From Escherichia phage phiWAO78-1, in sequence record MW331437.1: a stretch of 44,551 nt of DNA. The stretch is one strand, 5' to 3'. The notes below the pieces were generated by a model, which saw only the letters and a list, made by a program, of their open reading frames with translations, was not told the DNA's origin and searched no databases. The translations under genes were made by a program, and so were the position numbers. Within the stretch, counting starts at the first letter, position 1, and each line of letters opens with the position of its first letter. Below are positions 14-44,462 of the stretch, piece by piece.

Positions 14-34
14 AGCCCTCTACGGAGGGCTTTT
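14..34 (+). terminator. Rho-independent terminator-like hairpin (AGCCCTC-TACG-GAGGGC + TTTT)
   Basis: GC stem 14-20/25-30 followed by T-run 31-34, directly upstream of the packaging genes. Confidence 0.5.
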
Positions 35-35
35 C

Positions 36-65
36 TGTACATCCCGCCCAATCCCCTTATATAAT
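36..65 (+). promoter_or_regulatory. Candidate sigma70-type promoter for the packaging/structural operon (TGTACA-N18-TATAAT)
   Basis: Consensus -10 TATAAT at 60-65, weak -35 TGTACA at 36-41, 18-nt spacer; about 65 nt upstream of TerS start. Confidence 0.35.
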
Positions 66-3969: not shown

Positions 3970-4164
3970 TTAGTAAGGTAAGGCCTTGCGAATTGTATAC
4001 CCATATCCGAGGTAGCCGTTTTCCTCTTGCATAGCGGAGGCACGCAGCAGAGCAGCATTCTCGCCTTTTACTACAGCTACCACATAATCCGTAGAGTCTG
4101 GGCCGTTTTCTACAACTCCATACGCCTGTACGTTCTTGGTGGTAAGTTCATATGTGTTAGTCAT
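3970..4164 (-). CDS. Hypothetical protein (accessory cassette A)
   Basis: 64 aa ORF; ATG 4164 preceded by AGGAA SD and the conserved promoter element A. Confidence 0.45.
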   Translation of the reverse strand: MTNTYELTTKNVQAYGVVENGPDSTDYVVAVVKGENAALLRASAMQEENGYLGYGYTIRKALPY

Positions 4165-4195
4165 TTCTAAATTCCTTATCTCTCGTTTCGATAAC

Positions 4196-4228
4196 TGAAT
4201 AGTACCCTATTATATTGGGGTCTGCAAA
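4196..4228 (-). promoter_or_regulatory. Class-1 conserved promoter-like element, copy A (TTGCAG-N17-TACTAT with AATAG-N4-CTATT dyad)
   Basis: 33-bp element shared with copies at 6082, 15681, 37611, 39002; about 35 nt upstream of the minus-strand ATG at 4164. Confidence 0.6.
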
Positions 4229-4271
4229 TATTATTTTTATGCGTTACACTGGCGATACCACAGGAGGGCAT

Positions 4272-5315
4272 ATGAGCTTACTTACATCCCTAATCAGCCA
4301 CCAGATATGGCTGCAACGCACCGCATCCGGCGAAGTGAAAGACCTTGCACCATTTCTTCAGGAAATGCGGGACGAAATCAAACGGCAGGTCCTGTTATTC
4401 GGTGACGACGGGCGAAGCACTGCGCGACTGAATAAACTGTTACGCGACCTTGAAGAAGCACTGGCAGGACTTACCGGTGACTGGCAAACAAAGCTGACAG
4501 AAGACCTTAAGGAACTGGCGGCATATGAAGCAGAGTGGAACGTAAAAACGCTAACGGCTAGCGTTAACGCGGAATTTGTTACACCTACCGCCGAACAGGT
4601 GTGGGCCGCTGCCGAGTTTCAACCGCTCTCATTGAGCGACAAGCCTGTCGATTTCACTAAGTTGATGTCCGGTTGGGGTGAAGCCGAAGTCGCTCGCCTT
4701 GTAACAGGCGTTAAGATGGGTTTCGTACAAGGTCAGACGACACGGCAGATTGTTAAGAATGTCGTAGGCGCGGGCGGGCTGGCTGACATCTCCGAGCGAA
4801 ACGCCGCTACAGTAATACGTACTGCGCTATCGCACGTGTCCAACGAAGCCCGCAACGAGACGTACAGGCAAAACGACGACATCATCGAGAAGTACGAATG
4901 GGTGTCAACGCTGGACAGTCGTACCAGTACGATTTGCAGAGCCAGAGACGGAATGACGTGGGAAATTGGTATGGGGCCGATGCCCCCCGCCCATCCGAAC
5001 TGTCGATCGTGCACAGCCCCGGTAATTAGCTCGGAGTTCGACTTCCTCGATAAAGGCGCGAAACGTGCAGCTAAGGGTGCGGAAGGTGGTACCCAGGTGA
5101 GCGCGGACACCGCCTATTATGAGTTCCTTAAACAACAACCGGCATGGTTTCAGGACCAGGCACTAGGGCCGGTTCGCGGTAAGATTTTCCGCAACAGCGG
5201 TATATCGCCGGAAGAGTTTCGCGTAATATCTGTAGATGGTTTCGGGAATCCGCTCACGCTTAAGCAGATGGCGGAACTCGATAAACGTGTCGCTGATTAT
5301 CTGAAAGGGGAATAA
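4272..5315 (+). CDS. Head morphogenesis protein (phage Mu F / SPP1 gp7-like minor head protein)
   Basis: Region TLDSRTSTICRARDG...PPAHPNCRSCT resembles the conserved C-terminal signature of this family; position after portal; start at ATG 4272 with GGAGGG SD (ORF open from 4215). Confidence 0.7.
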   Translation: MSLLTSLISHQIWLQRTASGEVKDLAPFLQEMRDEIKRQVLLFGDDGRSTARLNKLLRDLEEALAGLTGDWQTKLTEDLKELAAYEAEWNVKTLTASVNAEFVTPTAEQVWAAAEFQPLSLSDKPVDFTKLMSGWGEAEVARLVTGVKMGFVQGQTTRQIVKNVVGAGGLADISERNAATVIRTALSHVSNEARNETYRQNDDIIEKYEWVSTLDSRTSTICRARDGMTWEIGMGPMPPAHPNCRSCTAPVISSEFDFLDKGAKRAAKGAEGGTQVSADTAYYEFLKQQPAWFQDQALGPVRGKIFRNSGISPEEFRVISVDGFGNPLTLKQMAELDKRVADYLKGE

Positions 5316-5777: not shown

Positions 5778-5805
5778 CTGAGGCCCCGAAAGGGGCCTCA
5801 GTTTT
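5778..5805. terminator. Bidirectional rho-independent terminator (CTGAGGCCCC-GAAA-GGGGCCTCAG)
   Basis: 10-bp perfect GC-rich stem with T-runs on both strands, between convergent genes ending at 5776 and 5804. Confidence 0.75.
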
Positions 5806-6055
5806 AATACCCAGTCTCTTGGGTTAAGTTAATCTCTTTATTCCAGACGTTTCGGTCATACTTTTCACGAATCTGGCGCATACTTCTGCCGACCGCGGCG
5901 GATAGAGACGTATCCCCATCTTCTTGCGCGTCCAATTGAATCCGCCGAAGCCCAATATACGCCGAAATATCGCCGCGTAATTCGGCCTGTTCATACTCTT
6001 TTTTAAGAAAAGAACCAAGGTCCTGTACACGATGTTTTGCTGGTTTCGTAATCAT
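5804..6055 (-). CDS. Hypothetical protein (accessory cassette B)
   Basis: 83 aa ORF; ATG 6055 with GAGGAGAG SD about 25 nt downstream of conserved promoter element B. Confidence 0.45.
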   Translation of the reverse strand: MITKPAKHRVQDLGSFLKKEYEQAELRGDISAYIGLRRIQLDAQEDGDTSLSAAVGRSMRQIREKYDRNVWNKEINLTQETGY

Positions 6056-6081
6056 TTCTTCTCTCCTCTTGTTGGTGTGAA

Positions 6082-6114
6082 TGAATAGTACCCTATTATA
6101 TTGGGGTGTGCAAA
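6082..6114 (-). promoter_or_regulatory. Class-1 conserved promoter-like element, copy B
   Basis: TTTGCACACCCCAATATAATAGGGTACTATTCA on the minus strand; the best match to the family consensus. Confidence 0.6.
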
Positions 6115-6179
6115 CTATTTGTTTACGTATTCCAGTTATTCAACTGATTTGTAAATGATGGAATAAACTATTCGAATAG

Positions 6180-6208
6180 TTGACTTTTCACTAAAAATGT
6201 GCTAAGCT
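6180..6208 (+). promoter_or_regulatory. Candidate sigma70 promoter (TTGACT-N17-TAAGCT) preceded by palindrome CTATTCGAATAG
   Basis: Good -35 with 17-nt spacing and a weak -10; palindrome 6168-6179 abuts the -35. Confidence 0.3.
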
Positions 6209-6214
6209 CCACCT

Positions 6215-6412
6215 GAGCTTGTGAAGTATGAACAAGCGACCGCGGCGCGGGCAGGTAACGGAGCGGGACGTAAGTCCTGAGTGTAGTTACGCTGACGCGT
6301 TCGGAAGGGCCGTACTCTATTGCTTGTGTAAAAAGTAACTGGTTTACTGAGATTACGCCGTTTCTATGTTTAAATGATAAGGCCTAGCGCCCCGCTTTAC
6401 GGCGGGGCTTTA
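6215..6412 (+). ncRNA. Candidate small non-coding RNA or leader transcript (about 200 nt)
   Basis: Promoter-like element at 6180-6208 and intrinsic terminator at 6389-6415 bracket a region with no ORF of 60 aa or more (only a 36-codon basic ORF from 6228 lacking a clear SD). Confidence 0.25.
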
Positions 6413-6415
6413 CTT
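6389..6415 (+). terminator. Rho-independent terminator (GCCCCGC-loop-GCGGGGC + TTTACTT)
   Basis: 7-bp GC stem followed by T-rich tract, 18 nt upstream of the spanin start. Confidence 0.6.
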
Positions 6416-6432
6416 ATCGAGAAAGGAGAAAC

Positions 6433-6819
6433 ATGAATCTTAAAGCAACTGTCGTAGCGGGGGCGTGTTTCATCATCCTGGCTTACGCACACGGCCTCTA
6501 CCAGTATCGCATCGGCTGGAATGAAGGCCGGGCGAATCTCGTTTCGCAGCAACAGCAGAAAGCACAGGCTGAGTTAGCGAAGAAAACACAACGGCAGCAG
6601 CAGGACGAATCGAAGGCCGCCGCCGCTGACAACGAAGGCAAGACGAAATCAGAGGTAATTACCCGTGAAGTCGTTAAGTACATTAAAACGCCTGGCCGCA
6701 GCGTGTGCACTTTTGACCCTGAGCGCGTGCGGCTCAAGTCCCGCGCCGTCGCAAACGCCAATTCCATCCCCGGATACGACGATGATGCAGCCGCCGTGCA
6801 AACTGGCACCGCCAAGTAG
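6433..6819 (+). CDS. i-spanin (Rz-like inner-membrane spanin component)
   Basis: N-terminal transmembrane segment VVAGACFIILAYA followed by Q/K/A-rich coiled-coil-like region; a lipoprotein ORF overlaps in the +1 frame. Confidence 0.6.
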   Translation: MNLKATVVAGACFIILAYAHGLYQYRIGWNEGRANLVSQQQQKAQAELAKKTQRQQQDESKAAAADNEGKTKSEVITREVVKYIKTPGRSVCTFDPERVRLKSRAVANANSIPGYDDDAAAVQTGTAK

Positions 6820-6928
6820 CGACGCTGACGAGGATTTAGCTATCGACGTTCAGAATGCCGAATGTGCACGGCAACTGAGACTGAAAGTGTTCATGTTGCA
6901 GGATTACGTGAGGAATATTCTGGAATAG
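6665..6928 (+). CDS. o-spanin (Rz1-like outer-membrane lipoprotein), overlapping the i-spanin gene in another frame
   Basis: Lipoprotein signal MKSLSTLKRLAAACALLTLSAC with lipobox LSAC; Pro-rich mature part; GTG start with GAGGT SD 8 nt upstream; begins inside 6433-6819 and extends past it. Confidence 0.6.
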   Translation: MKSLSTLKRLAAACALLTLSACGSSPAPSQTPIPSPDTTMMQPPCKLAPPSSDADEDLAIDVQNAECARQLRLKVFMLQDYVRNILE

Positions 6929-7010
6929 TTGCCTTGCATGTTGGAATAATTTATTCTTGACATGTAAATCCGGGCGGCCCGGGTTCCAACGTCCAGGGGA
7001 CATACTGACT

Positions 7011-7712
7011 ATGAATCGTTTTTTACGTTATCCGTTCCAGGAAGAAGCTGGAGCAGAAGATAAAGCTGGCGGCGGTGACGCGCCGAAAATGTTCACCGCT
7101 GAAGAAGTTCAGGCGCTGATTGAGAAAGAAGTCGCCGGGCTTAAGGCTAATCAGGAAGCGTTACTTGCGGAGAAGAAAGAAGCCGCTCGTAAAGCAAAAG
7201 AGGCCGAAGAAGAACGGCAGCGTGCCCATCAGGAGGCGTTAAAAGCCGCTGGTAAGATGGACGAGTTCGAAAAAACGATTCGTAGCCAGTATGACCCGGT
7301 GTTAGCCGAGAAAGACGGTCGCATCTCCAAAATGGCAGAGCGTATCCTCGGCAGCGAACGTAAGGCGGTGTTAGGCTCTTTCGCGGGCGACTTTATCACC
7401 CCGGAAGCAGTAGACATTCTTGCTCCGTTCGTTAAAACTGAGTTCGAAGGCGATGATGTGGTTACTAAGTTTGTTGGCGCAGACGGCAACGTAATCACGA
7501 CTGACCCGGAACAGTTCCGCAAATATCTGCGCGAACACAAAGCGTTTTCGCATTTGATTAAAGCAAATGCAGCTTCCGGCGGCGGGGCTTCCGGTGGCAA
7601 AGGCGGCGGGGCCGCACCAGCGTTTAAAGACATGAGTGAAGCGGAGCGTTTAGCTCTGTATAAATCGAACCCTGCCGAATTTGAACGGCAACTTAAAGCC
7701 CTGAGGAAATAA
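7011..7712 (+). CDS. Scaffolding protein (putative)
   Basis: Charged, Ala/Glu/Lys-rich helical protein with Gly-rich C-terminus immediately upstream of the major capsid gene; start at ATG 7011 (ORF open from 6957). Confidence 0.55.
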   Translation: MNRFLRYPFQEEAGAEDKAGGGDAPKMFTAEEVQALIEKEVAGLKANQEALLAEKKEAARKAKEAEEERQRAHQEALKAAGKMDEFEKTIRSQYDPVLAEKDGRISKMAERILGSERKAVLGSFAGDFITPEAVDILAPFVKTEFEGDDVVTKFVGADGNVITTDPEQFRKYLREHKAFSHLIKANAASGGGASGGKGGGAAPAFKDMSEAERLALYKSNPAEFERQLKALRK

Positions 7713-15653: not shown

Positions 15654-15680
15654 TTTAAACCCCTTCGTTGTCGGTGTAAG

Positions 15681-15713
15681 TGAATAGTACCCTATTATAT
15701 TGGGGCGCGCAAG
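15681..15713 (-). promoter_or_regulatory. Class-1 conserved promoter-like element, copy C
   Basis: CTTGCGCGCCCCAATATAATAGGGTACTATTCA on the minus strand, about 30 nt upstream of ATG 15653. Confidence 0.6.
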
Positions 15714-19879: not shown

Positions 19880-20241
19880 ATATTAACGACTACACGGGCA
19901 TACCTTACGACTTTCGTAAACGCAATTGCTGGCATCATGTGCGCATTGTCCGCGCGGATGCCGGGTTAGATACGCCAGCGTTCGACGTTACAAGCCCAAC
20001 GGCAATTAACGACGCGTTTGACGAAGGACATCGCAACACGAAGGGGCTTACAAAAATTGATAAGCCTGAAAACTTCTGTGCTGTGCTTATGGGGTATCGC
20101 CGTGGTGGTCGTATCGTGTGGCACGCAGGAGTTTACTTCGACGGGATGGTCAGCCATTGCGAGCTTGCGTCCCGTCAGGTACGGCTTGACAGGCTGGCGG
20201 ACCTCAGAGACACATACACGGAGATTGAATTTTGGCGATAA
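19876..20241 (+). CDS. Tail assembly protein (lambda K-like?; Cys/His-containing)
   Basis: 121 aa with NCWHHV and downstream His residues, positioned like lambda gpK between minor tail and central fiber genes; family assignment tentative. Confidence 0.35.
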   Translation: MNINDYTGIPYDFRKRNCWHHVRIVRADAGLDTPAFDVTSPTAINDAFDEGHRNTKGLTKIDKPENFCAVLMGYRRGGRIVWHAGVYFDGMVSHCELASRQVRLDRLADLRDTYTEIEFWR

Positions 20242-20297
20242 TCCTGCACTACACGCGAAACGCTGATGGCGCTTTCGACCGTACAAAACACGTCGGG

Positions 20298-34179: not shown

Positions 34180-34243
34180 CGGGCTTTTCTAAAATAATTA
34201 ATATGGTACTATTCACATATCAACTGACTAAGGAGTAACTGAC

Positions 34244-37237: not shown

Positions 37238-37517
37238 ACATAATTGCACCTATTGACATTATGAAAATCTTCGTTTAAGGTGCTTCTATATCTTAGTTAC
37301 TTTGATTCTTGTTCACCTTGTAAAACCCGCCGAAAACGAGCGCTCAACGCGAAGTGTTAGGCGGCAGTTTACTGAACATGAGAATTATCGTAACTTTCCT
37401 TCCTAAGTATCTCCGGTTGCCCTGGGCAAGCTCTATTCTCATCGGCAGCATACCTCTTAAGTATCTGATTTTCTTAATGTGCCGTAGATTCGCAACCGTA
37501 AAAATGTAACGATTATC

Positions 37518-37541
37518 GGGCAGGCTTAATGCCTGCCCTTT
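37518..37541 (+). terminator. Terminator-like hairpin (GGGCAGGC-TTAAT-GCCTGCCC + TTT)
   Basis: 8-bp perfect stem in a roughly 450-bp region without convincing ORFs. Confidence 0.35.
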
Positions 37542-37610
37542 AGTTACCAAGTAATAAGAATAAAGGCACGACCCTCCCTAAAGAATCACAACGGCAACGT
37601 AACTATTCTC

Positions 37611-37643
37611 TTGCACACCCCAACATAATAGGATACTATTCAC
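37611..37643 (+). promoter_or_regulatory. Class-1 conserved promoter-like element, copy D
   Basis: TTGCACACCCCAACATAATAGGATACTATTCAC on the plus strand about 30 nt upstream of the first gene of the rightward small-ORF array. Confidence 0.6.
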
Positions 37644-37673
37644 TTATCGGAACGATACAGAGGAGTGAGGGTT

Positions 37674-37865
37674 ATGTTTAAGAAGGGTCAGTTGGTTAAA
37701 TGCGCCGACGGTAAACACGGTGTGATTGAATTAAAATCTGCTTTATTTCCGGGAGAGTACGTAGTTACTGTGCAAAAGGTGAGAGGAGTAAATTCGGTGG
37801 TATACGTAGCGGAAGAGAATTTAAAACTAATCGGCAACAATTTTAAATTCAAAGGGGAGAAGTGA
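37674..37865 (+). CDS. Hypothetical small protein
   Basis: ATG 37674 with GAGGAGTGAGGG SD (ORF open from GTG 37665). Confidence 0.4.
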   Translation: MFKKGQLVKCADGKHGVIELKSALFPGEYVVTVQKVRGVNSVVYVAEENLKLIGNNFKFKGEK

Positions 37866-38104
37866 TGCAAATCATAATTACAGATAACACAGTTTCCTAC
37901 GAAAAAGATGACGACGATACTTTGGAGAGCATAGGCGTAAATATCGGTGATGTTTTCGATGTCCTTGGTATCGTATCAGGCAGCTGGTGGATTAAGGTCG
38001 GTCGCTACAAAGTTCCGGTAAGCAAGGCAGAAGCGAAAATATTCTCAACGGCATCGAATCATGATGCTCGTGCCGACGACTCTGAGGGAGGTTGCCGTGA
38101 ATAA
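37862..38104 (+). CDS. Hypothetical small protein
   Basis: 80 aa; ATGA overlap with upstream gene. Confidence 0.4.
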   Translation: MMQIIITDNTVSYEKDDDDTLESIGVNIGDVFDVLGIVSGSWWIKVGRYKVPVSKAEAKIFSTASNHDARADDSEGGCRE

Positions 38105-38164
38105 TTACCTGTTTATTTTAATTGTCAGCGCCGTTTGTGTGGTGCACGCGTTGTGGGGGCTGGT

Positions 38165-38356
38165 ATGAGAATTCGTATAACCAAGATAAATGGCTTTCTA
38201 CCACTGCCTTACGGTGACTATCCTCTTTACCACTTTGGGGTATGCGTTGGGCAGGAGTTCGATACTATCGGCGAAAACGAGTATGGCTTTGTCGTAGAAC
38301 ATGACGGAGAGCCGCTATTCATTAGACGCAGTGAATGTGAAGTTCTGGAGGACTAA
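38165..38356 (+). CDS. Hypothetical small protein
   Basis: ATG 38165 (ORF open from 38135). Confidence 0.35.
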   Translation: MRIRITKINGFLPLPYGDYPLYHFGVCVGQEFDTIGENEYGFVVEHDGEPLFIRRSECEVLED

Positions 38357-38359
38357 GTT

Positions 38360-38503
38360 ATGAGAGAAGCATTTGAACGGTGGGCTGTCGTCGAGGGTCT
38401 GCCGGTTAACAAGGGTTCGAAGAAAGAGTACCTGAACGTTAAGACGCGTCTCGCGTGGCGGGCGTGGAAAGCTGGTGTTCGAACTGCGATGAGTAAGAGG
38501 TGA
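38360..38503 (+). CDS. Hypothetical small basic protein (47 aa)
   Basis: GGAGGA SD before ATG 38360; below ORF-track cutoff. Confidence 0.3.
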   Translation: MREAFERWAVVEGLPVNKGSKKEYLNVKTRLAWRAWKAGVRTAMSKR

Positions 38504-38506
38504 GAT

Positions 38507-38701
38507 GTGTGTGAGTGGGTTAAGTGTAGTGAGCGGATGCCAGATGACTTTGAAGATGTACTGGTTTCAGATGGGGGTAACGTTGAGGTGATGTGGTGGG
38601 ATTGCGATGGCTTCTGGGATTGTTGGGCACCGCGTAACTCAAATATCAGTAGTGACGATGTGACTCACTGGATGTCGTTACCTGAGCCGCCGGAAGTGTG
38701 A
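38507..38701 (+). CDS. Small Trp/Cys-rich protein, possibly DUF551-like
   Basis: MPDDFEDVLV...VTHWMSLPEPP pattern resembles DUF551 phage proteins (from memory); GTG start. Confidence 0.35.
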   Translation: MCEWVKCSERMPDDFEDVLVSDGGNVEVMWWDCDGFWDCWAPRNSNISSDDVTHWMSLPEPPEV

Positions 38702-38825
38702 TGTTCAATAGTTTGTGATTTTACTGAGTGACTTACGCTGCTACACAGCAGCGTATCATTTTTCTCATTTTTGTTCTATTTCACCAAACGCAACCATCGA
38801 AGCGACTATTGCAGGAGATGCAACA

Positions 38826-38996
38826 ATGAAACTGAATGACATCGTAACCTGGACCGGTAGAAACGGAGAAAAGCGATTCGGGCTTATTGTTGCATCAAAC
38901 GGCAACAAGTACCGTGTTATGCGATGGCGTCAGTGGGCACGACGCCAGAGGTACTACTGGATTCGCAGTGAACGTTTATCTTTAAAACACCAATAA
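38826..38996 (+). CDS. Hypothetical small protein (56 aa)
   Basis: ATG 38826 with AGGAGA SD (ORF open from 38715). Confidence 0.35.
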   Translation: MKLNDIVTWTGRNGEKRFGLIVASNGNKYRVMRWRQWARRQRYYWIRSERLSLKHQ

Positions 38997-39001
38997 AATT
39001 T

Positions 39002-39034
39002 CTTGCCACTGGGATAGAATAGGCTACTATTCAT
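39002..39034 (+). promoter_or_regulatory. Class-1 conserved promoter-like element, copy E (diverged)
   Basis: CTTGCCACTGGGATAGAATAGGCTACTATTCAT keeps TTGCC, the AATAG-N4-CTATT dyad and TACTATTCA; 27 nt upstream of ATG 39062. Confidence 0.45.
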
Positions 39035-39061
39035 TTACACAGACGAGAGGAGAGACAGAGG

Positions 39062-39199
39062 ATGAAATACGAAATTTTAGACGTAACTAAATTAGCCGAG
39101 AATTACGCAATATATGGCTTGGCTGTTGTTTGTGACGGGGGTGCAAAGCGTGCCTACACTGCGGGCACTGAGGAGCCAGAAGATGTTCCTGGAATGTAA
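39062..39199 (+). CDS. Hypothetical small protein (45 aa)
   Basis: GAGAGGAGAGA SD; below ORF-track cutoff. Confidence 0.3.
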   Translation: MKYEILDVTKLAENYAIYGLAVVCDGGAKRAYTAGTEEPEDVPGM

Positions 39200-39393
39200 A
39201 TCCTACGAGGGCTATTGGGTGCTGACTAAAAACGACCTGTACCACCTCAAAGAAGACGGCGACGAGAGCCGCTGCTAAGTAATAGACGACAACGGCACTG
39301 AACTTGATGTCTATTACACCGGGTATGGTCGGTGGGCGCTATCTGCGGACGATGACTTTGTGTTTGAAGAATATAACGGGGAGGAGTCAGAAG

Positions 39394-39930
39394 ATGAGTA
39401 ACAAAAACGAAGTATTCGAGTACCTGATTGACCAACTACGGCAGCAGGTAAATAAGAAAGATGTCACATCTTTCAATGTGTCTGTACAGATATCCGACCT
39501 TGATGAGGTCAAGCAGGTAATCCACAACCTACAGCAGCATATCGCTGGTAGGGACGACGAAATACGTGTGCTGAAAGACACCCTACGGCAGCGGGTAAAT
39601 AACAACCAGTGCGAAGACCTGGCCCATGAGGTGTTGTCACTTAAGAACCAGTTACGTGATGCTTCGGCGCAGATTAAGGAGTTGCATCTGGCGTTGGTCA
39701 AAGCTGTGGGTGACAGGGAGGCGTACAAACTTATCCGCAAACAGGAGCAATCTGGTTGCTGTAAAGAAGATACTCAGGAATGCCACCATAACTGGCGATT
39801 CGTTAACGGAAAGGCTCCCGCCGTATGTATTAATTGCGGCGTGACCAAAACTGAGGAGTGTGGACACGTGTGGGAATATTATTACCCAAACGGCCGGCGT
39901 TGTACCAAATGCGGGGCGATAAACTTATGA
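39394..39930 (+). CDS. Coiled-coil protein with C-terminal Cys4 zinc-ribbon-like cluster
   Basis: ATG 39394 with GGGGAGGAG SD; C-terminus CINCGV...CTKCG. Confidence 0.45.
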   Translation: MSNKNEVFEYLIDQLRQQVNKKDVTSFNVSVQISDLDEVKQVIHNLQQHIAGRDDEIRVLKDTLRQRVNNNQCEDLAHEVLSLKNQLRDASAQIKELHLALVKAVGDREAYKLIRKQEQSGCCKEDTQECHHNWRFVNGKAPAVCINCGVTKTEECGHVWEYYYPNGRRCTKCGAINL

Positions 39931-40130
39931 CCAGCATCTTATTTATCTGGGTACTAAGTGTGGGCCAGATGCAACTAGCGGCATCAGAAACGTTTTACTC
40001 GATGGAGGCGTGCCAGTCAGCGGCACGCGCCGCAGAGAACGCGCACTTCCTGTTTCAGGGTGACAAGCCCAACGATTCAGAGGTACGCGCTATCTGCTCA
40101 CCTAAGCGACTTGGTAAACAGGAGAAGTGA
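39927..40130 (+). CDS. Small protein with N-terminal signal/TM segment
   Basis: ATGA overlap with upstream gene; hydrophobic N-terminus SILFIWVLSVG. Confidence 0.35.
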   Translation: MTSILFIWVLSVGQMQLAASETFYSMEACQSAARAAENAHFLFQGDKPNDSEVRAICSPKRLGKQEK

Positions 40131-40132
40131 TT

Positions 40133-40426
40133 ATGGTACAGAGATATGAGTTAAAAGAAGACTGTGTTACCGGGCATATTGACTTAGAGGAAGATGCCGG
40201 CGGTGATTGGGTTGGCTATGAAGATTACGTAAAACTTGAAGCTGAACTTAGTGGACTTAAAGAGTGGCGGGCGCAGGTAATAGACGTTGCCTTAAAAGCG
40301 TCCGAGGAAGCACGCACCACGATAGCTAATCTCGAAGCCGAGTTACAGAAATACAAAGACCAGTTCCCGGATTACATCGAGTGCGCGAACTGTGGGTCAA
40401 TTACACATGTGGAAGGGGTGGAGTGA
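40133..40426 (+). CDS. Hypothetical protein
   Basis: ATG 40133 (ORF open from 40127). Confidence 0.4.
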   Translation: MVQRYELKEDCVTGHIDLEEDAGGDWVGYEDYVKLEAELSGLKEWRAQVIDVALKASEEARTTIANLEAELQKYKDQFPDYIECANCGSITHVEGVE

Positions 40427-40719
40427 TGTCGTTAGCAACTGACATCCTGAAACGAAGCGGCCTTGCGCCGCTGTCACCGAGAGCTAAAACACAGATATAC
40501 AAACGTCAGGGTAATGCGCTGTTCCCCGAGATTCAGGCCAGACGCAAAGCGGTCCGCGCCTGTGGATTCCAGAACGGGAAGGCCGTGAATCTCGGTGAGT
40601 TCAAAACGCAGGAACGCGCGGCTATCGCTAATCGGTTATTTAATTACTGGAAATCGCTGGGTTATGAAGATATTCCGACGAAACCACAGAGACGACAATA
40701 CATCTGGCGCCATAAATAA
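40426..40719 (+). CDS. Hypothetical protein
   Basis: ATG 40426 overlapping upstream stop (GTGATG). Confidence 0.35.
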   Translation: MSLATDILKRSGLAPLSPRAKTQIYKRQGNALFPEIQARRKAVRACGFQNGKAVNLGEFKTQERAAIANRLFNYWKSLGYEDIPTKPQRRQYIWRHK

Positions 40720-40794
40720 ACCGTTATTAGGATAATTCCTACCCGTGGTATCCTCCAGTTACTGCATACTTAATACGCACCTGGAGGATTCATC

Positions 40795-41103
40795 TTGGAT
40801 AAATTTACTGAAACAGTGACAGGCTGGCTTCTCGCAGCCGCACTCGCCGGAGGAGTCATCGGACTACGACAACATAAGTCCGTCATTTCCGGCCCTATCG
40901 ACGGCTTCTGCTTTATTGCAACCGGCTTCACTTGCGCCGTATTTGGTGCGCCTCTTGCCGCTCAATGGTTCGGTATCACAGGCGACCGTGAAATCGCGGG
41001 CCTCGGATTCATCATCGCTATTCTCTGGATGCCTATCTATTCCCGCCTCTCCGGTATCGTCGCCGGGGAATACATCGCACGTCGAGGAGGCCCAGATGAA
41101 TGA
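40795..41103 (+). CDS. Holin-like membrane protein (putative)
   Basis: 102 aa with several hydrophobic segments, first gene of a three-gene cassette ending in endolysin. Confidence 0.5.
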   Translation: MDKFTETVTGWLLAAALAGGVIGLRQHKSVISGPIDGFCFIATGFTCAVFGAPLAAQWFGITGDREIAGLGFIIAILWMPIYSRLSGIVAGEYIARRGGPDE

Positions 41104-41368
41104 GTTATTCTGGTTCGGCGGTATGCTGGCAATAGGAGGCACATCGCTGTTTAATGTATATCATCCCAGCGTGGACGACGGATTATTTGGCCGGGTGCTC
41201 TATATCCTGACTGCTATTGTCTGCGCTGCCGGGTGTATCCACATGTTACAGGGCAGCATGTCACCGACGTTGCCCGAGACATTAATCACATTAGTCGCGC
41301 TGCGCCAGATTCGTCAGGCGTGGCTATCGTACGGAGGACATAAGCGTGTCTCGAAACATTTCAGATAA
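41096..41368 (+). CDS. Second holin/antiholin-like membrane protein (putative)
   Basis: GGAGG SD; hydrophobic segments FWFGGMLAIGG and VLYILTAIVCAAG; overlaps both neighbours. Confidence 0.4.
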   Translation: MNELFWFGGMLAIGGTSLFNVYHPSVDDGLFGRVLYILTAIVCAAGCIHMLQGSMSPTLPETLITLVALRQIRQAWLSYGGHKRVSKHFR

Positions 41369-41831
41369 TGGATTGCATTTTACCGCTGCGTTCGAGGGAT
41401 TCCGTGGAACCGCGTATCGCGCTACACCTTCGGAAAAATACTTAACCATAGGCTACGGAAGCTACGGCCCTCATGTGTATGAAGGACAGAAGATTACGAA
41501 GAGGCAAGGCCTCCTGTTGCTGAATCGCGATATGGCTAAGGCCGTAGCTGCGGTTGATGCAGCGGCGCACCATTCACTGACACAGGCGCAGTTCGACGCA
41601 GTGTGCGACCTGGTCTATAACGCGGGTACTGGCGTGGTAGCAGCTACTACTGGCACGGGTAAGGCGCTGCGTTCCGGCGATATTGCGACGCTGCGGGCTA
41701 AGCTGGCTCTGTTCATCAACCAGAACGGCAAACCGTTACTTGGTCTACGCCGCCGTACTGCTGGGCGCCTGGCGCTGTTCGACGGTAAACCGTGGCAGGA
41801 GGCTGAGGCTATCGGGAGGGCCATTAAATAA
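41346..41831 (+). CDS. Endolysin, GH24 lysozyme-like (T4 lysozyme family)
   Basis: N-terminal catalytic pattern EGFRGTAYRATPSEKYLTIGYG matches the E...D/T...TIGxG lysozyme signature. Confidence 0.8.
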   Translation: MSRNISDNGLHFTAAFEGFRGTAYRATPSEKYLTIGYGSYGPHVYEGQKITKRQGLLLLNRDMAKAVAAVDAAAHHSLTQAQFDAVCDLVYNAGTGVVAATTGTGKALRSGDIATLRAKLALFINQNGKPLLGLRRRTAGRLALFDGKPWQEAEAIGRAIK

Positions 41832-42044
41832 TGGACGAATATGAAGGCGTTTAGTATTCTGGTTAGGCCAAGTTTTTCGTATTTGCTAATGGAGGCCAAT
41901 ATGGCATTGCAAGAGTTCACTAACCCTGTTAAATCTCGTGATGATATCGACGAGTCTATTGGTTACGGCGAAGGTTGACACCTAAGAGTGATCCGACGAT
42001 ACTTAAATTACCTCCTGTTCCATCCCTCTGCTCTCCAGTTTTAT

Positions 42045-42074
42045 CCCGGCCCTGACCCAGCCGGGATTTTTTTT
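42045..42074 (+). terminator. Strong rho-independent terminator (CCCGGC-loop-GCCGGG + T8)
   Basis: 6-bp GC stem followed by eight consecutive T residues. Confidence 0.75.
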
Positions 42075-42159
42075 ATCTATTTTCTGCAATGACTAGTTGA
42101 CTATTACTCTGACACCAATTATATTTACTCCATCGACAACGAGAACGGAGTAGGCAGAA

Positions 42160-42348
42160 ATGATGACTAAGATTAAGCACACCGATAATTGGGGCGATTT
42201 CCTGGAGATAGATAAGTGCAGGGACGGGTCATTACTTATAACTTGTACCGACGGTGATAGCGACGAATCAGGTAATGTTAATATGAGCCTGGATGATTTT
42301 ATGACTATTGTTGAGCAGGTTCTGGCGTTTTATGGAGATGTTAAATGA
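42160..42348 (+). CDS. Hypothetical small acidic protein
   Basis: 62 aa ORF after terminator. Confidence 0.4.
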   Translation: MMTKIKHTDNWGDFLEIDKCRDGSLLITCTDGDSDESGNVNMSLDDFMTIVEQVLAFYGDVK

Positions 42349-42494
42349 AAATCACAGATATCGAAGCATTCAAAGACGCGCAACTGATGGCACGCATTGC
42401 CGTTAGTCACCTGGGTGGAAGCATTCCTGCGGATTCGTTCTGGGCAGCAGCGGTGAAGGCACTGAAAGCAGCTTATGCAGGAGAGAAGAAATGA
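42345..42494 (+). CDS. Hypothetical small protein (49 aa)
   Basis: ATGA overlaps with neighbours; below ORF-track cutoff. Confidence 0.3.
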   Translation: MKITDIEAFKDAQLMARIAVSHLGGSIPADSFWAAAVKALKAAYAGEKK

Positions 42495-42700
42495 ACAATG
42501 TTACTGTCGGCGGAATCTATATGAGTGATTACTCGTGGGAGGGAGAGGGTGGCGCCAGATTCATCGTAACTGCGGTTGGGTTGGACCACGTGCTTATTGC
42601 AGACCTCCCATTGATAAAATTCAATGAATCCTATTTGGAATATTGTGTTGGCCGAAAGGAGTTCGAGGCTAAATTTAAGTTTGCAGGAGAGAATAAATGA
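42491..42700 (+). CDS. Hypothetical small protein
   Basis: 69 aa ORF, translationally coupled. Confidence 0.4.
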   Translation: MNNVTVGGIYMSDYSWEGEGGARFIVTAVGLDHVLIADLPLIKFNESYLEYCVGRKEFEAKFKFAGENK

Positions 42701-42894
42701 AAGTTAAAGCCGCTAAAATTCTCTGGTTAGCCGCCCTTGACTATGTGACAGAGGGTAAAGTGTATGATGTATACAACCCGACAGCTACTGGTTTCGGTTA
42801 TATAGACTCCGACGACGACTGCCATATTTTCATAGACTTTGGTAACGATGATGGTGATGGTTTCCATGGCGTTAAATGGGAGGTTGTAGAATGA
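42697..42894 (+). CDS. Hypothetical small protein
   Basis: 65 aa ORF, translationally coupled. Confidence 0.4.
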   Translation: MKVKAAKILWLAALDYVTEGKVYDVYNPTATGFGYIDSDDDCHIFIDFGNDDGDGFHGVKWEVVE

Positions 42895-43049
42895 GCGAAC
42901 AAGGTCCAGCAAGCCAACCATTACGGGTAGGCCGTAAGGTAAGTCACACCCCGTTCCCGACACGCGAGGAACTGATGAAACGTAACAGTTTCCCGGGGCC
43001 GGACAAGAACAAGTATCTCAATCGCATGTGGGGAGAGCGCAAAGAATGA
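42891..43049 (+). CDS. Hypothetical small protein (52 aa)
   Basis: ATGA overlaps at both ends. Confidence 0.3.
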   Translation: MSEQGPASQPLRVGRKVSHTPFPTREELMKRNSFPGPDKNKYLNRMWGERKE

Positions 43050-43228
43050 AAGTAAAATGTGTGTTGCTTAAGGGTGATTGGGTTGAGTTTACACTAAACG
43101 GGGTGTACGAAGCCGTCGCGCTACCGAGTTATGGGTACCTAGTTGGAGACTTCTACCTCAATAACTCTCTTGAGGTTGAAGGCTACGAAAGTGAGTGCGT
43201 ATTTGAGGCGGTGAACAATGACCAATAA
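43046..43228 (+). CDS. Hypothetical small protein
   Basis: ATG 43046 (ORF open from 43028). Confidence 0.35.
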   Translation: MKVKCVLLKGDWVEFTLNGVYEAVALPSYGYLVGDFYLNNSLEVEGYESECVFEAVNNDQ

Positions 43229-43391
43229 CGAATACGAGAAACTTAGCGTAGGAGCGGCGACCGGTGAATCTGAAATAGCGTGGATTGACGCCAACATCGA
43301 GCACTACCTACGGCAAGTAGACATCCTTATGGAACGCCGCCGTGAATTGATTAACCGCTTCAACCTGAACAAAGGTGACGCCAATGCCTAA
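43218..43391 (+). CDS. Hypothetical small protein (57 aa)
   Basis: Hand-translated; overlaps neighbours. Confidence 0.3.
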   Translation: MTNNEYEKLSVGAATGESEIAWIDANIEHYLRQVDILMERRRELINRFNLNKGDANA

Positions 43392-43623
43392 AATCACAAT
43401 CGCATCACTCGAGCGCCGTATTCTGGTGCTTGAGTCGGAGAAACAGACGTTGGGCGGGCAACTGTCAATTAATGGTGAGTTTCAACTGGAGGCGTTTAAG
43501 TTGTTGCTTGATAAGTTGAAAGAGGGTGAAAAGCCTTGTGCGCATGACTACTACATACGTGTTGGTGGCGGGTCCCGACATATCACATGCCTGAAATGCG
43601 GTAAAACGTATGGGGGCACCTGA
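43384..43623 (+). CDS. Small protein with C-terminal zinc-ribbon-like Cys/His cluster
   Basis: CAHDYYIRVGGGSRHITCLKCG at C-terminus. Confidence 0.4.
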   Translation: MPKITIASLERRILVLESEKQTLGGQLSINGEFQLEAFKLLLDKLKEGEKPCAHDYYIRVGGGSRHITCLKCGKTYGGT

Positions 43624-43792
43624 ACCAGTAGTTATTGATGGCGTCCTGTGGAAACCCTACTCGGTTAACCACATCGACGCCGACGGGAAGAAGTTCAGCT
43701 TCTACATTTTTGCAATTAGCCGTGAGCACGCCGCTTGCGTGGTCGACGATATTCGAGAAACGGCGTGGCTCGGCGATGAGATAGGGGGGTAA
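43610..43792 (+). CDS. Hypothetical small protein
   Basis: 60 aa ORF. Confidence 0.3.
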   Translation: MGAPEPVVIDGVLWKPYSVNHIDADGKKFSFYIFAISREHAACVVDDIRETAWLGDEIGG

Positions 43793-43879
43793 GAGTATGA
43801 GTCTTGAGGTTGTTATTGGCCTGGTCGGTCTTAGTTACTTCATTGGGTTATTAGTTGGTTTTCTGTGGGGTAGATACTG

Positions 43880-44050
43880 ATGTTCGACAATATTGACGCG
43901 GCAATCGAAGAAGCAATCTGGCGTCGCTACAACGGCGAACAACAGCGACACTTCTGCCTTGTACAACGCGGTAACATGGTCGCCGTAGTGCAGGACCGCG
44001 ATAACAAATATCCGAATGCGATGTGGACAACGAGGAATTTCTTAGGATGA
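43880..44050 (+). CDS. Hypothetical small protein (56 aa)
   Basis: Hand-translated; ATGA overlap with downstream gene. Confidence 0.3.
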   Translation: MFDNIDAAIEEAIWRRYNGEQQRHFCLVQRGNMVAVVQDRDNKYPNAMWTTRNFLG

Positions 44051-44283
44051 TTACCAGCATTCCGAACCTGATTAAAGAATACGGCACGATGGCGGAGACA
44101 TGCCGACAAACCGGCATCAACGAAATGACGATTGCCAAGTACAGCAAAGACGTTGATTGTGAGCGACATGTAATTTATAACAACCGTCTGATGACGCACG
44201 TTAAGACAAGCCCGGTGTTATTCACGCGCCGAGGTATCACTAAAACAGAGCAACGTATCGCTAAAGAGGAGAGCGGGGAATGA
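44047..44283 (+). CDS. Small putative HTH DNA-binding protein
   Basis: ETCRQTGINEMTIAKYSKD resembles a helix-turn-helix. Confidence 0.35.
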   Translation: MITSIPNLIKEYGTMAETCRQTGINEMTIAKYSKDVDCERHVIYNNRLMTHVKTSPVLFTRRGITKTEQRIAKEESGE

Positions 44284-44462
44284 TTGAGATTTTGAAAGCT
44301 ACAAATGCCGTGGGCAACCTGGTGTTCTGGCTGGCGTTTCTCGTTGTGCTGATAAAACAACCGACTTTGTTTAACAGTCTTCCTCGCCATCTGTGGTGGC
44401 CTATGTTTTTAGGCATGGGTGTATCAGGAGTGGCAGGCATCCTGTTGTGGTTTTTCAAATGA
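44280..44462 (+). CDS. Small membrane protein
   Basis: 60 aa with two hydrophobic segments. Confidence 0.35.
   Translation: MIEILKATNAVGNLVFWLAFLVVLIKQPTLFNSLPRHLWWPMFLGMGVSGVAGILLWFFK

Follow-up and report, generated by a model that had tools for sequence, protein, structure and literature searches.

Two overlapping open reading frames (ORFs) lie between the Hoc-like and scaffold genes of Escherichia phage phiWAO78-1 (MW331437.1), whose 44,551-nt sequence, taken at full length, is the window analysed here. The initial annotation had placed the pair at 6433–6928, and the ORF list contains both ORFs as described, at 6433–6819 and 6665–6928. The pair and its Shine-Dalgarno sequences, which were read from the sequence, are as follows:

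6423–6428 (+), strong Shine-Dalgarno AAGGAG of the i-spanin gene
6433–6819 (+), i-spanin gene, 128 aa, ATG start (ORF list; phrog_2536; hydropathy)
6652–6655 (+), Shine-Dalgarno GAGG of the o-spanin gene, 9 nt before the GTG and kept in relatives
6665–6928 (+), o-spanin gene, 87 aa, GTG start, +1 frame (ORF list; phrog_1267 and phrog_5672)

The 128-aa product matches phrog_2536 (Rz-like spanin) over its full length (E=1.7e-56), and tblastn found homologues in 589 phage records. Its Kyte-Doolittle hydropathy reaches a 19-residue maximum of 1.68 at residues 5–23, marking an N-terminal membrane helix, and a single-sequence AlphaFold2 model has a helix at residues 3–63 (pLDDT 74–92), with low confidence in the C-terminal half. 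The predicted protein thus has the form of an i-spanin, with a single N-terminal transmembrane domain, a predicted N-in/C-out topology and a helical periplasmic domain that the model resolves up to its C-terminal half. Of the earlier description, a transmembrane segment followed by a helical periplasmic domain, the membrane segment and the first part of the helical domain stand, and the model leaves the C-terminal half at low confidence. One periplasmic Cys is present, Cys92.

The 87-aa product carries the signals of an o-spanin. Its N-terminus, MKSLSTLKRLAAACALLTLSA followed by CGSS, satisfies the PROSITE PS51257 lipoprotein pattern; the lipobox is LSAC, the predicted lipidated residue is Cys22 (codon 6728–6730) and the residue at +2 is Gly, not Asp. 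The mature protein of 66 aa has nine Pro, all within its first 30 residues, so that the lipobox and Pro-rich mature region reported initially are both borne out, and at the sequence level these are the traits expected of an o-spanin, i.e. an SPII lipobox, no Asp at +2 and a Pro-rich mature part. Further Cys are found at positions 45 and 67, the C-terminal helix region is conserved, and the protein matches both phrog_1267 (E=2.3e-20, residues 9–86) and phrog_5672 (E=1e-29, residues 41–87). The o-spanin gene shares 155 nt with the i-spanin gene and then runs 109 nt past the i-spanin stop, and the architecture is therefore 'overlapped'. The +1 frame given by the initial annotation is correct, but the description of the lipoprotein ORF as embedded is not. 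Spanin genes are embedded, overlapping or adjacent, with the o-spanin in the +1 frame where they overlap, and the placement seen here is of this kind. Periplasmic Cys that could form intermolecular disulfides are present in both partners (Cys92 of the i-spanin, Cys45 and Cys67 of the o-spanin).

These features point to a family that has already been catalogued. Kongari et al. 2018 (BMC Bioinformatics 19:326, PMC6139136) described a Jersey family of 27 phages, including Jersey, SETP3, SE2, K1G, K1H, K1ind1-3, EP23, HK578 and others, in which the Jersey genes overlap by 155 bp and the o-spanin Cys at 45 and 67 are conserved. The overlap and the Cys positions found here equal these published values, which places the locus in the Jersey family, and both proteins also belong to it by sequence (phrog_2536 and phrog_1267). 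In common with this family, the pair has the overlapped layout, the 155-bp overlap, Cys45 and Cys67 in the o-spanin, a 128-aa i-spanin and a single periplasmic Cys in the i-spanin; there is no difference of substance, only the signal-peptide sequence and a few residues differing. Protein identity by tblastn is 91–97% to Kagunavirus/K1-type coliphages and 62–78% to Jerseyviruses. Judged by its sequence, the locus thus belongs with the 'Jersey' overlapped spanins, as a real, ordinary and already known case.

The better-known spanin families did not account for the two proteins. A Pfam scan of both gave nothing above threshold (DUF2514, 16.8 bits against a cut-off of 26), and an NCBIfam scan gave only a sub-threshold match to P2_Rz1 (15.5 bits against a cut-off of 27). 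We rejected the lambda Rz (PF03245), Rz1 (PF06085) and P2 LysB/LysC sequence families, as all of their profile matches were sub-threshold. The pair nevertheless resembles lambda Rz/Rz1 in its design, in that one stretch of DNA encodes a type-II inner-membrane protein and, in the +1 frame, an outer-membrane lipoprotein; the o-spanin is Pro-rich, periplasmic Cys are available for intermolecular disulfides and the presumed mechanism is membrane fusion. It differs in that lambda Rz1 is fully embedded in Rz, whereas the o-spanin gene here extends beyond its partner, and in having no sequence similarity to the lambda pair that the Pfam and NCBIfam profiles detect. The lambda spanin genes also close the S-R-Rz lysis cassette, whereas those of the window lie 9 kb downstream of the endolysin, among head genes.

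We gathered 93 loci with relatives of the i-spanin from GenBank phages, IMG/VR and metagenomes. A +1-frame lipoprotein ORF crosses the i-spanin 3′ end in 92 of them (74 distinct sequences) and persists down to about 41% i-spanin identity; because it is kept so consistently, the o-spanin ORF stands above chance. The o-spanin frame relative to the i-spanin is +1 in all 92 loci, and the overlap ranges from 8 to 197 nt, 155 nt being the commonest. The mature o-spanin has three Cys in 90 of the 92, and the i-spanin has one periplasmic Cys in every one of the 92. The o-spanin signal peptides diverge strongly by lineage (LSAC, LASC, ITGC, LNGC and others), while the C-terminal halves can be aligned across lineages and the C-terminal 45 residues are conserved as protein. 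As judged from these alignments, a divergent signal peptide joined to an alignable C-terminus is the pattern expected for a real, selected lipoprotein. Membrane helix, lipobox, +1 overlap, Cys, PHROG matches and conservation all agree with the overlapping two-component spanin identity first proposed.

The window represents the whole genome, circularly permuted, of a Kagunavirus-type siphophage in the Guernseyvirinae. When the last 450 and first 450 bases were joined into a 900-nt query, the junction aligned without a break in 82 related records, namely those whose start point lies elsewhere; the two ends are therefore contiguous and the genome complete. A megablast search with 5800–7100 returned 350 phage records, the best being Kagunavirus and Escherichia phages at 94–96% identity, and in these relatives the region is already labelled 'spanin', 'Rz-like spanin' or 'o-spanin', followed by the scaffold protein. 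On the (+) strand the gene order is terS, terL, portal, head morphogenesis, Hoc-like protein, spanin locus, scaffold and major capsid. The holin-like genes and GH24 endolysin that had been noted at 40795–41831 are confirmed by PHROG and Pfam matches:

40795–41103 (+), holin, 102 aa (phrog_2359, E=3.8e-29)
41096–41368 (+), second holin or antiholin, 90 aa counted from Met61 of the listed ORF (phrog_2508, E=1.1e-32, residues 61–150 of the listed ORF)
41346–41831 (+), GH24 endolysin, 161 aa (PF00959, E=2.3e-26; PHROG match), with no N-terminal signal-anchor segment

On the linear coordinates of the window the holin start lies 33.9 kb past the o-spanin, and the initial annotation had accordingly put about 34 kb between the spanins and the cassette. 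This distance is an artefact of the cut site, since the window ends are contiguous in the 82 related records. Across the genome junction, the endolysin stop is followed after 9,152 nt (9.15 kb) by the i-spanin start, downstream and on the same strand. Where a linearised phage genome seems to put lysis genes far apart, the circular map should be consulted.

Spanin genes usually, though not obligatorily, lie in or next to the holin-endolysin cassette, and those of the window do not. The initial annotation regarded this splitting of lysis functions as unusual, a view that the comparison with relatives overturns. In every related locus compared, the spanins occupy the slot between the head-morphogenesis/Hoc genes and the scaffold gene, and the same synteny is seen in Kagunavirus (Bas70), Jerseyvirus (FSL SP-101, SETP13), St162, Serratia phage Otaku and Dhillonvirus EP23. 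The separation of the spanins from the holins and endolysin is thus the conserved layout of all Guernseyvirinae and of Dhillonvirus, and is old and family-wide. It is also already in print (Schulenberg 2019, Golestan 2020, fBC-Eco01 2023; PMC6763661, PMC7203180, PMC9825357); in the Golestan phage the spanins are ORF7-8 and the holins and endolysin ORF66-68 (PMC7203180), and SeF1 has the same layout (PMC9409062). The textbook precedent for unlinked spanins and a split lysis system is T4 (PMC6139136), whose spanin genes PseT.3/PseT.2 likewise lie apart from the holin gene t and the endolysin gene e. In T4, unlike here, the two spanin genes do not overlap; there is no sequence similarity between the two systems, and the genomic context differs.

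The holins and endolysin are surrounded by many small genes of unknown function, which extend as one long run over 37665–44462 (+) and have more the look of an early or middle operon than of a late lysis cassette. Just ahead of terS, at the genome junction, lies a terminator-like hairpin of sequence AGCCCTC-TACG-GAGGGCT and then TTTCTGT (within window 14–65, +), and immediately after it a sigma-70-like promoter, TGTACA-N18-TATAAT, at 36–65 (+). With this hairpin and promoter in place, the packaging genes may be transcribed separately from the rightward holin-endolysin block.

Taken together, we consider it highly probable (roughly 90%) that the locus encodes a Jersey-type two-component spanin acting in the final step by which a Gram-negative host is lysed. 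We observed directly the ORFs and their targeting signals, the overlap, the conservation, the synteny and the profile-based family membership. From the lambda Rz/Rz1 paradigm we infer the topology, complex formation, membrane fusion and role in lysis. On this model the N-terminal helix of the 128-aa protein would anchor it in the inner membrane and its helical C-terminal domain would lie in the periplasm, and the 87-aa protein would be exported, lipidated at Cys22 and, because Gly rather than Asp stands at +2, sorted to the outer membrane. The C-terminal domains of the two would bind, giving a complex that spans the periplasm through the peptidoglycan mesh and that may be stabilised by intermolecular disulfides between the one periplasmic Cys of the i-spanin and the two Cys of the o-spanin, all of which are conserved. 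The holins (40795–41368) would release the GH24 endolysin (41346–41831) and the wall would be degraded; with the wall gone, the spanin complexes would collapse, the inner and outer membranes would fuse and the outer membrane would be removed. The holin-endolysin set is canonical by Pfam and PHROG and requires an outer-membrane step. No other conserved spanin candidate was seen: the ORFs after the endolysin have no lipobox, and none of the other seven ORFs in the window with a lipobox pattern is in a spanin-like pair. In the literature on Jersey-family spanins we found no experimental report for any member.

Could the 128-aa membrane protein be the only real product, and the lipobox ORF a chance reading frame? 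The lipobox pattern is not rare, as 8 ORFs of the window have it where shuffles have 2.4 on average; we rejected it as stand-alone evidence for this lack of specificity and used conservation instead. (An 82-aa ORF at 20018–20266 (+), which lies across the boundary between two tail genes in a different frame, has a lipobox-like N-terminus (…WGIAVVVVSC) and is probably spurious.) The GTG start also fits a chance frame, as does the state of public annotation: many GenBank records, and PHROG 5672, hold only a 47-aa C-terminal fragment that begins at an internal ATG (window 6785–6928), as in Bas70_0009 (positions 4704–4847 of locus L001) and SETP13 gp09 (2853–2996 of locus L003), and in the FSL SP-101 and Otaku records the gene is not annotated at all. 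Starting from the internal ATG, these annotations lose the signal peptide and lipobox; the functional start lies 120 nt further upstream, at the GTG (or ATG). Against a chance frame, the open +1 frame and its lipobox are retained in 92 of the 93 loci despite the divergence of the signal peptides, the C-terminal 45 residues are conserved as protein, the upstream Shine-Dalgarno is kept and the ORF matches two PHROG spanin families. We regard a chance origin of the second ORF as very improbable.

A second alternative, somewhat less remote but still improbable, is that a genuine membrane protein and lipoprotein serve a purpose other than lysis, either superinfection exclusion or receptor blocking (T5 Llp, Cor-type) or an envelope-associated step of assembly. 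This would explain why the genes lie in the head module instead of the lysis cassette, between the Hoc-like and scaffold genes and 9 kb from the endolysin. It is also in keeping with the lack of above-threshold similarity to proven spanins, and with a host-type promoter of the pair's own that could fire early. Exclusion lipoproteins, however, are single genes, whereas here the lipoprotein gene overlaps, in the +1 frame, that of a type-II membrane partner; the joint conservation of the C-terminal regions and the Cys pattern suit the spanin model, and the genome has otherwise no recognisable function for disrupting the outer membrane.

The region upstream of the spanin genes holds several candidate transcription signals and a conserved non-coding element:

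5778–5801 (both strands), terminator hairpin, 10-bp and GC-rich, CTGAGGCCCC GAAA GGGGCCTCAG (read from the sequence; fBC-Eco01)
6180–6208 (+), sigma-70-like promoter TTGACT-N17-TAAGCT with TG before the −10 (extended −10), read from the sequence
6216–6388 (+), conserved non-coding leader or small-RNA body (alignments, covariation)
6217–6222/6232–6237 (+), helix P1 of the element, 5′ domain
6240–6249/6296–6304 (+), helix P2, 5′ domain
6252–6259/6286–6294 (+), helix P3, 5′ domain
6264–6269/6274–6279 (+), helix P4, with a GUAA loop, 5′ domain
6389–6408 (+), terminator-like GC-rich hairpin of 8 bp (7 G-C), then TTTACTTATC (scan; fBC-Eco01 terminator annotation)

The hairpin at 5778–5801 directly follows the stop of the Hoc-like gene and has T-runs on both strands, and the equivalent site in the fBC-Eco01 record is annotated as a terminator on both strands. 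Read from these signals, it is a bidirectional terminator parting the spanin unit from the upstream head genes. Given this terminator and a minus-strand ORF at 5804–6055, transcripts of the upstream head genes probably stop short of the spanins. This ORF (83 aa) has no family match and is variable among relatives, being covered in 24 of the 350 records; the slot between the Hoc-like gene and the spanins holds an endonuclease VII, a hydrolase, RusA or nothing in relatives, and in this it resembles an insertion site for morons.

Between the upstream terminator and the spanins, the sequence at 6180–6208 is the only promoter candidate. It was missed by a simple promoter scan, is conserved in alignments of relatives and is 'Host promoter1' in the fBC-Eco01 annotation. 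A repeated motif of 40 nt, containing TGAATAGTACCCTATTATATTGGGGTGTGCAA, occurs at every junction between oppositely oriented gene blocks, and its copies in the window are:

4196–4232, 6069–6114 and 15668–15712 (+), 40-nt motif
34199–34215, 37611–37642 and 39014–39055 (−), 40-nt motif

On the opposite strand the motif has a perfect TATAAT about 35 nt before the RBS, and its consensus is that of the predicted 'phage promoters' found with PHIRE in the fBC-Eco01 paper (PMC9825357). We rejected the copy at 6069–6114 as a spanin promoter, as its TATAAT is on the minus strand and the fBC-Eco01 record places the motif on that strand; by its orientation this copy more likely drives the opposite-strand ORF at 5804–6055.

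The second hairpin, at 6389–6408, ends 24 nt ahead of the i-spanin ATG, and its stem shows a compensatory change from C-G to G-C/U-A among relatives. Transcription would enter the spanin genes from the promoter at 6180–6208 by read-through of this hairpin, and the unit would continue into the scaffold and major capsid genes; this arrangement is, from the order of signals, the most likely one. Because a terminator closes the head genes and a promoter, a structured leader and a hairpin precede the spanins, separate regulation of the spanins, as first suggested, is plausible.

Directly upstream of the spanins, 6180–6410 (+) thus presents a promoter, about 190 nt of non-coding sequence and a hairpin. 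The non-coding element is far better conserved than its neighbours: between the window and the Jerseyviruses FSL SP-101 and SETP13 it is 96.5–97.3% identical, as against 73–82% for the i-spanin, o-spanin and scaffold genes. Identity stands at 96–99% when Kagunavirus and part of Jerseyvirus are taken together, and among the 180 phage records in which the element is present it is at least 95% in 178. We distinguish a type A element, the version found in the window, from a type B element, that of the SETP3/SE2-like Jerseyviruses. A 36-aa ORF at 6228–6338, carried as a 'hypothetical protein' in several records, was rejected as a gene: it has this length in only 38 of 59 distinct element variants, and in the remainder it is cut to 9–34 aa, extended to 40 or 48 aa or lacks its ATG. 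In type B an 11-nt deletion removes the start codon of this ORF. The element is thus not coding.

Alignments of the element instead bear out a paired structure. In a plain MAFFT alignment of 39 distinct sequences, the four helices and the hairpin were paired in 94.4% of cells, against 31–42% when the partners were slid; seven pairs had compensatory changes, and the covariation score of 0.132 (shuffle 0.068) was reached in none of 500 shuffles. In a covariance-model alignment of 42 distinct sequences, which is fitted to the structure and so favours the model, 96% of cells are paired, and compensatory changes are seen in 17 of the 29 pairs (mean of the shuffles 9.9; 0/500 shuffles). For this structure-fitted alignment the covariation score comes to 0.294, where shuffles give 0.105 and slid partners no more than 0.044. 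Helix P4 has at least seven sequence versions, all of which pair, and one position of P2 is found as C-G, U-A and A-U. On this covariation, the upstream element has a conserved RNA structure.

The element did not correspond to any catalogued RNA. A covariance search of the whole window with Rfam 15 gave no match at the gathering score, a search of 6050–6470 at E up to 10 gave nothing meaningful, and a search of E. coli genomes with the element gave no match. A pattern scan of bacterial genomes was too degenerate to bear on this, the matches listed being chance ones in GC-rich genomes, and our covariance model of the element (R1) found none of 80 loci to be real. A literature search for small or structured RNAs in these phages returned nothing relevant, and one transcriptome paper on a Guernseyvirinae phage mentions neither spanins nor non-coding RNA. 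R1 gave no significant hit in the upstream regions of St162-like and other diverged relatives, the best (E=2.8) lying at the right position. The St162-like leader is different and also structured, and the short motifs that it has in common with the element suggest, on that ground only, that the two may be homologous.

A second, free-standing copy of the element is present in 43 of the 180 records, about a quarter, and is unannotated in most. This copy occupies the divergent intergenic region of the early genes, with an HTH regulator gene on one side and the rightward small-gene block on the other, and has the same promoter and 5′ domain with a different 3′ part that carries its own terminator; its P3 and P4 helices are replaced and still pair. 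Examples are:

4137–4395 of locus L160 and about 708–980 of loci L167–L170, element copy 2 (Golestan, AV104, Snoke, RP180)

The window carries the spanin-linked copy only. At the equivalent early position, 37253–37545 (+), its non-coding sequence is a different one, flanked by TTGACA-N17-TAAGGT and by a terminator-like hairpin of sequence GGGCAGGC-TTAAT-GCCTGCCC and then TTT, and has only short motifs in common with copy 2 (AAGTATCTGATTT...GCCGTAG); R1 detected nothing in this region.

For a layout of promoter, leader and terminator, the systems to compare are the lambda pR′-qut-'6S' leader-tR′ unit and the HK022 put RNA. The lambda pR′-'6S'-tR′ unit likewise has a constitutive-type promoter, about 190 nt of non-coding sequence and a terminator-like hairpin ahead of lysis and late morphogenetic genes, a likeness of layout only. 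The element has no sequence or Rfam similarity to lambda pR′ or HK022 put, the annotation of the close relative Bas70 includes no Q-like antiterminator and, unlike the lambda and HK022 units, the element has a free-standing early-region copy in some genomes. The existence of this copy favours a trans-acting small RNA, which would fit at least as well as a cis leader. We put forward, tentatively and as rather less than an even chance, that the spanin pair is the first coding unit under an apparently undescribed structured RNA that either gates read-through into the spanin, scaffold and capsid genes or acts in trans as a small RNA. The element may govern the expression of the spanins and head genes.

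The spanin locus itself adds little, as the family is catalogued and the gene order documented, and the structured RNA upstream of it may be the only part that is new. Phages of the Guernseyvirinae are widely used candidates for therapy and biocontrol. If the upstream RNA is real and regulatory, it would add a phage RNA family absent from Rfam, and it would offer a handle on how Guernseyvirinae time the disruption of the outer membrane and the expression of their head genes.
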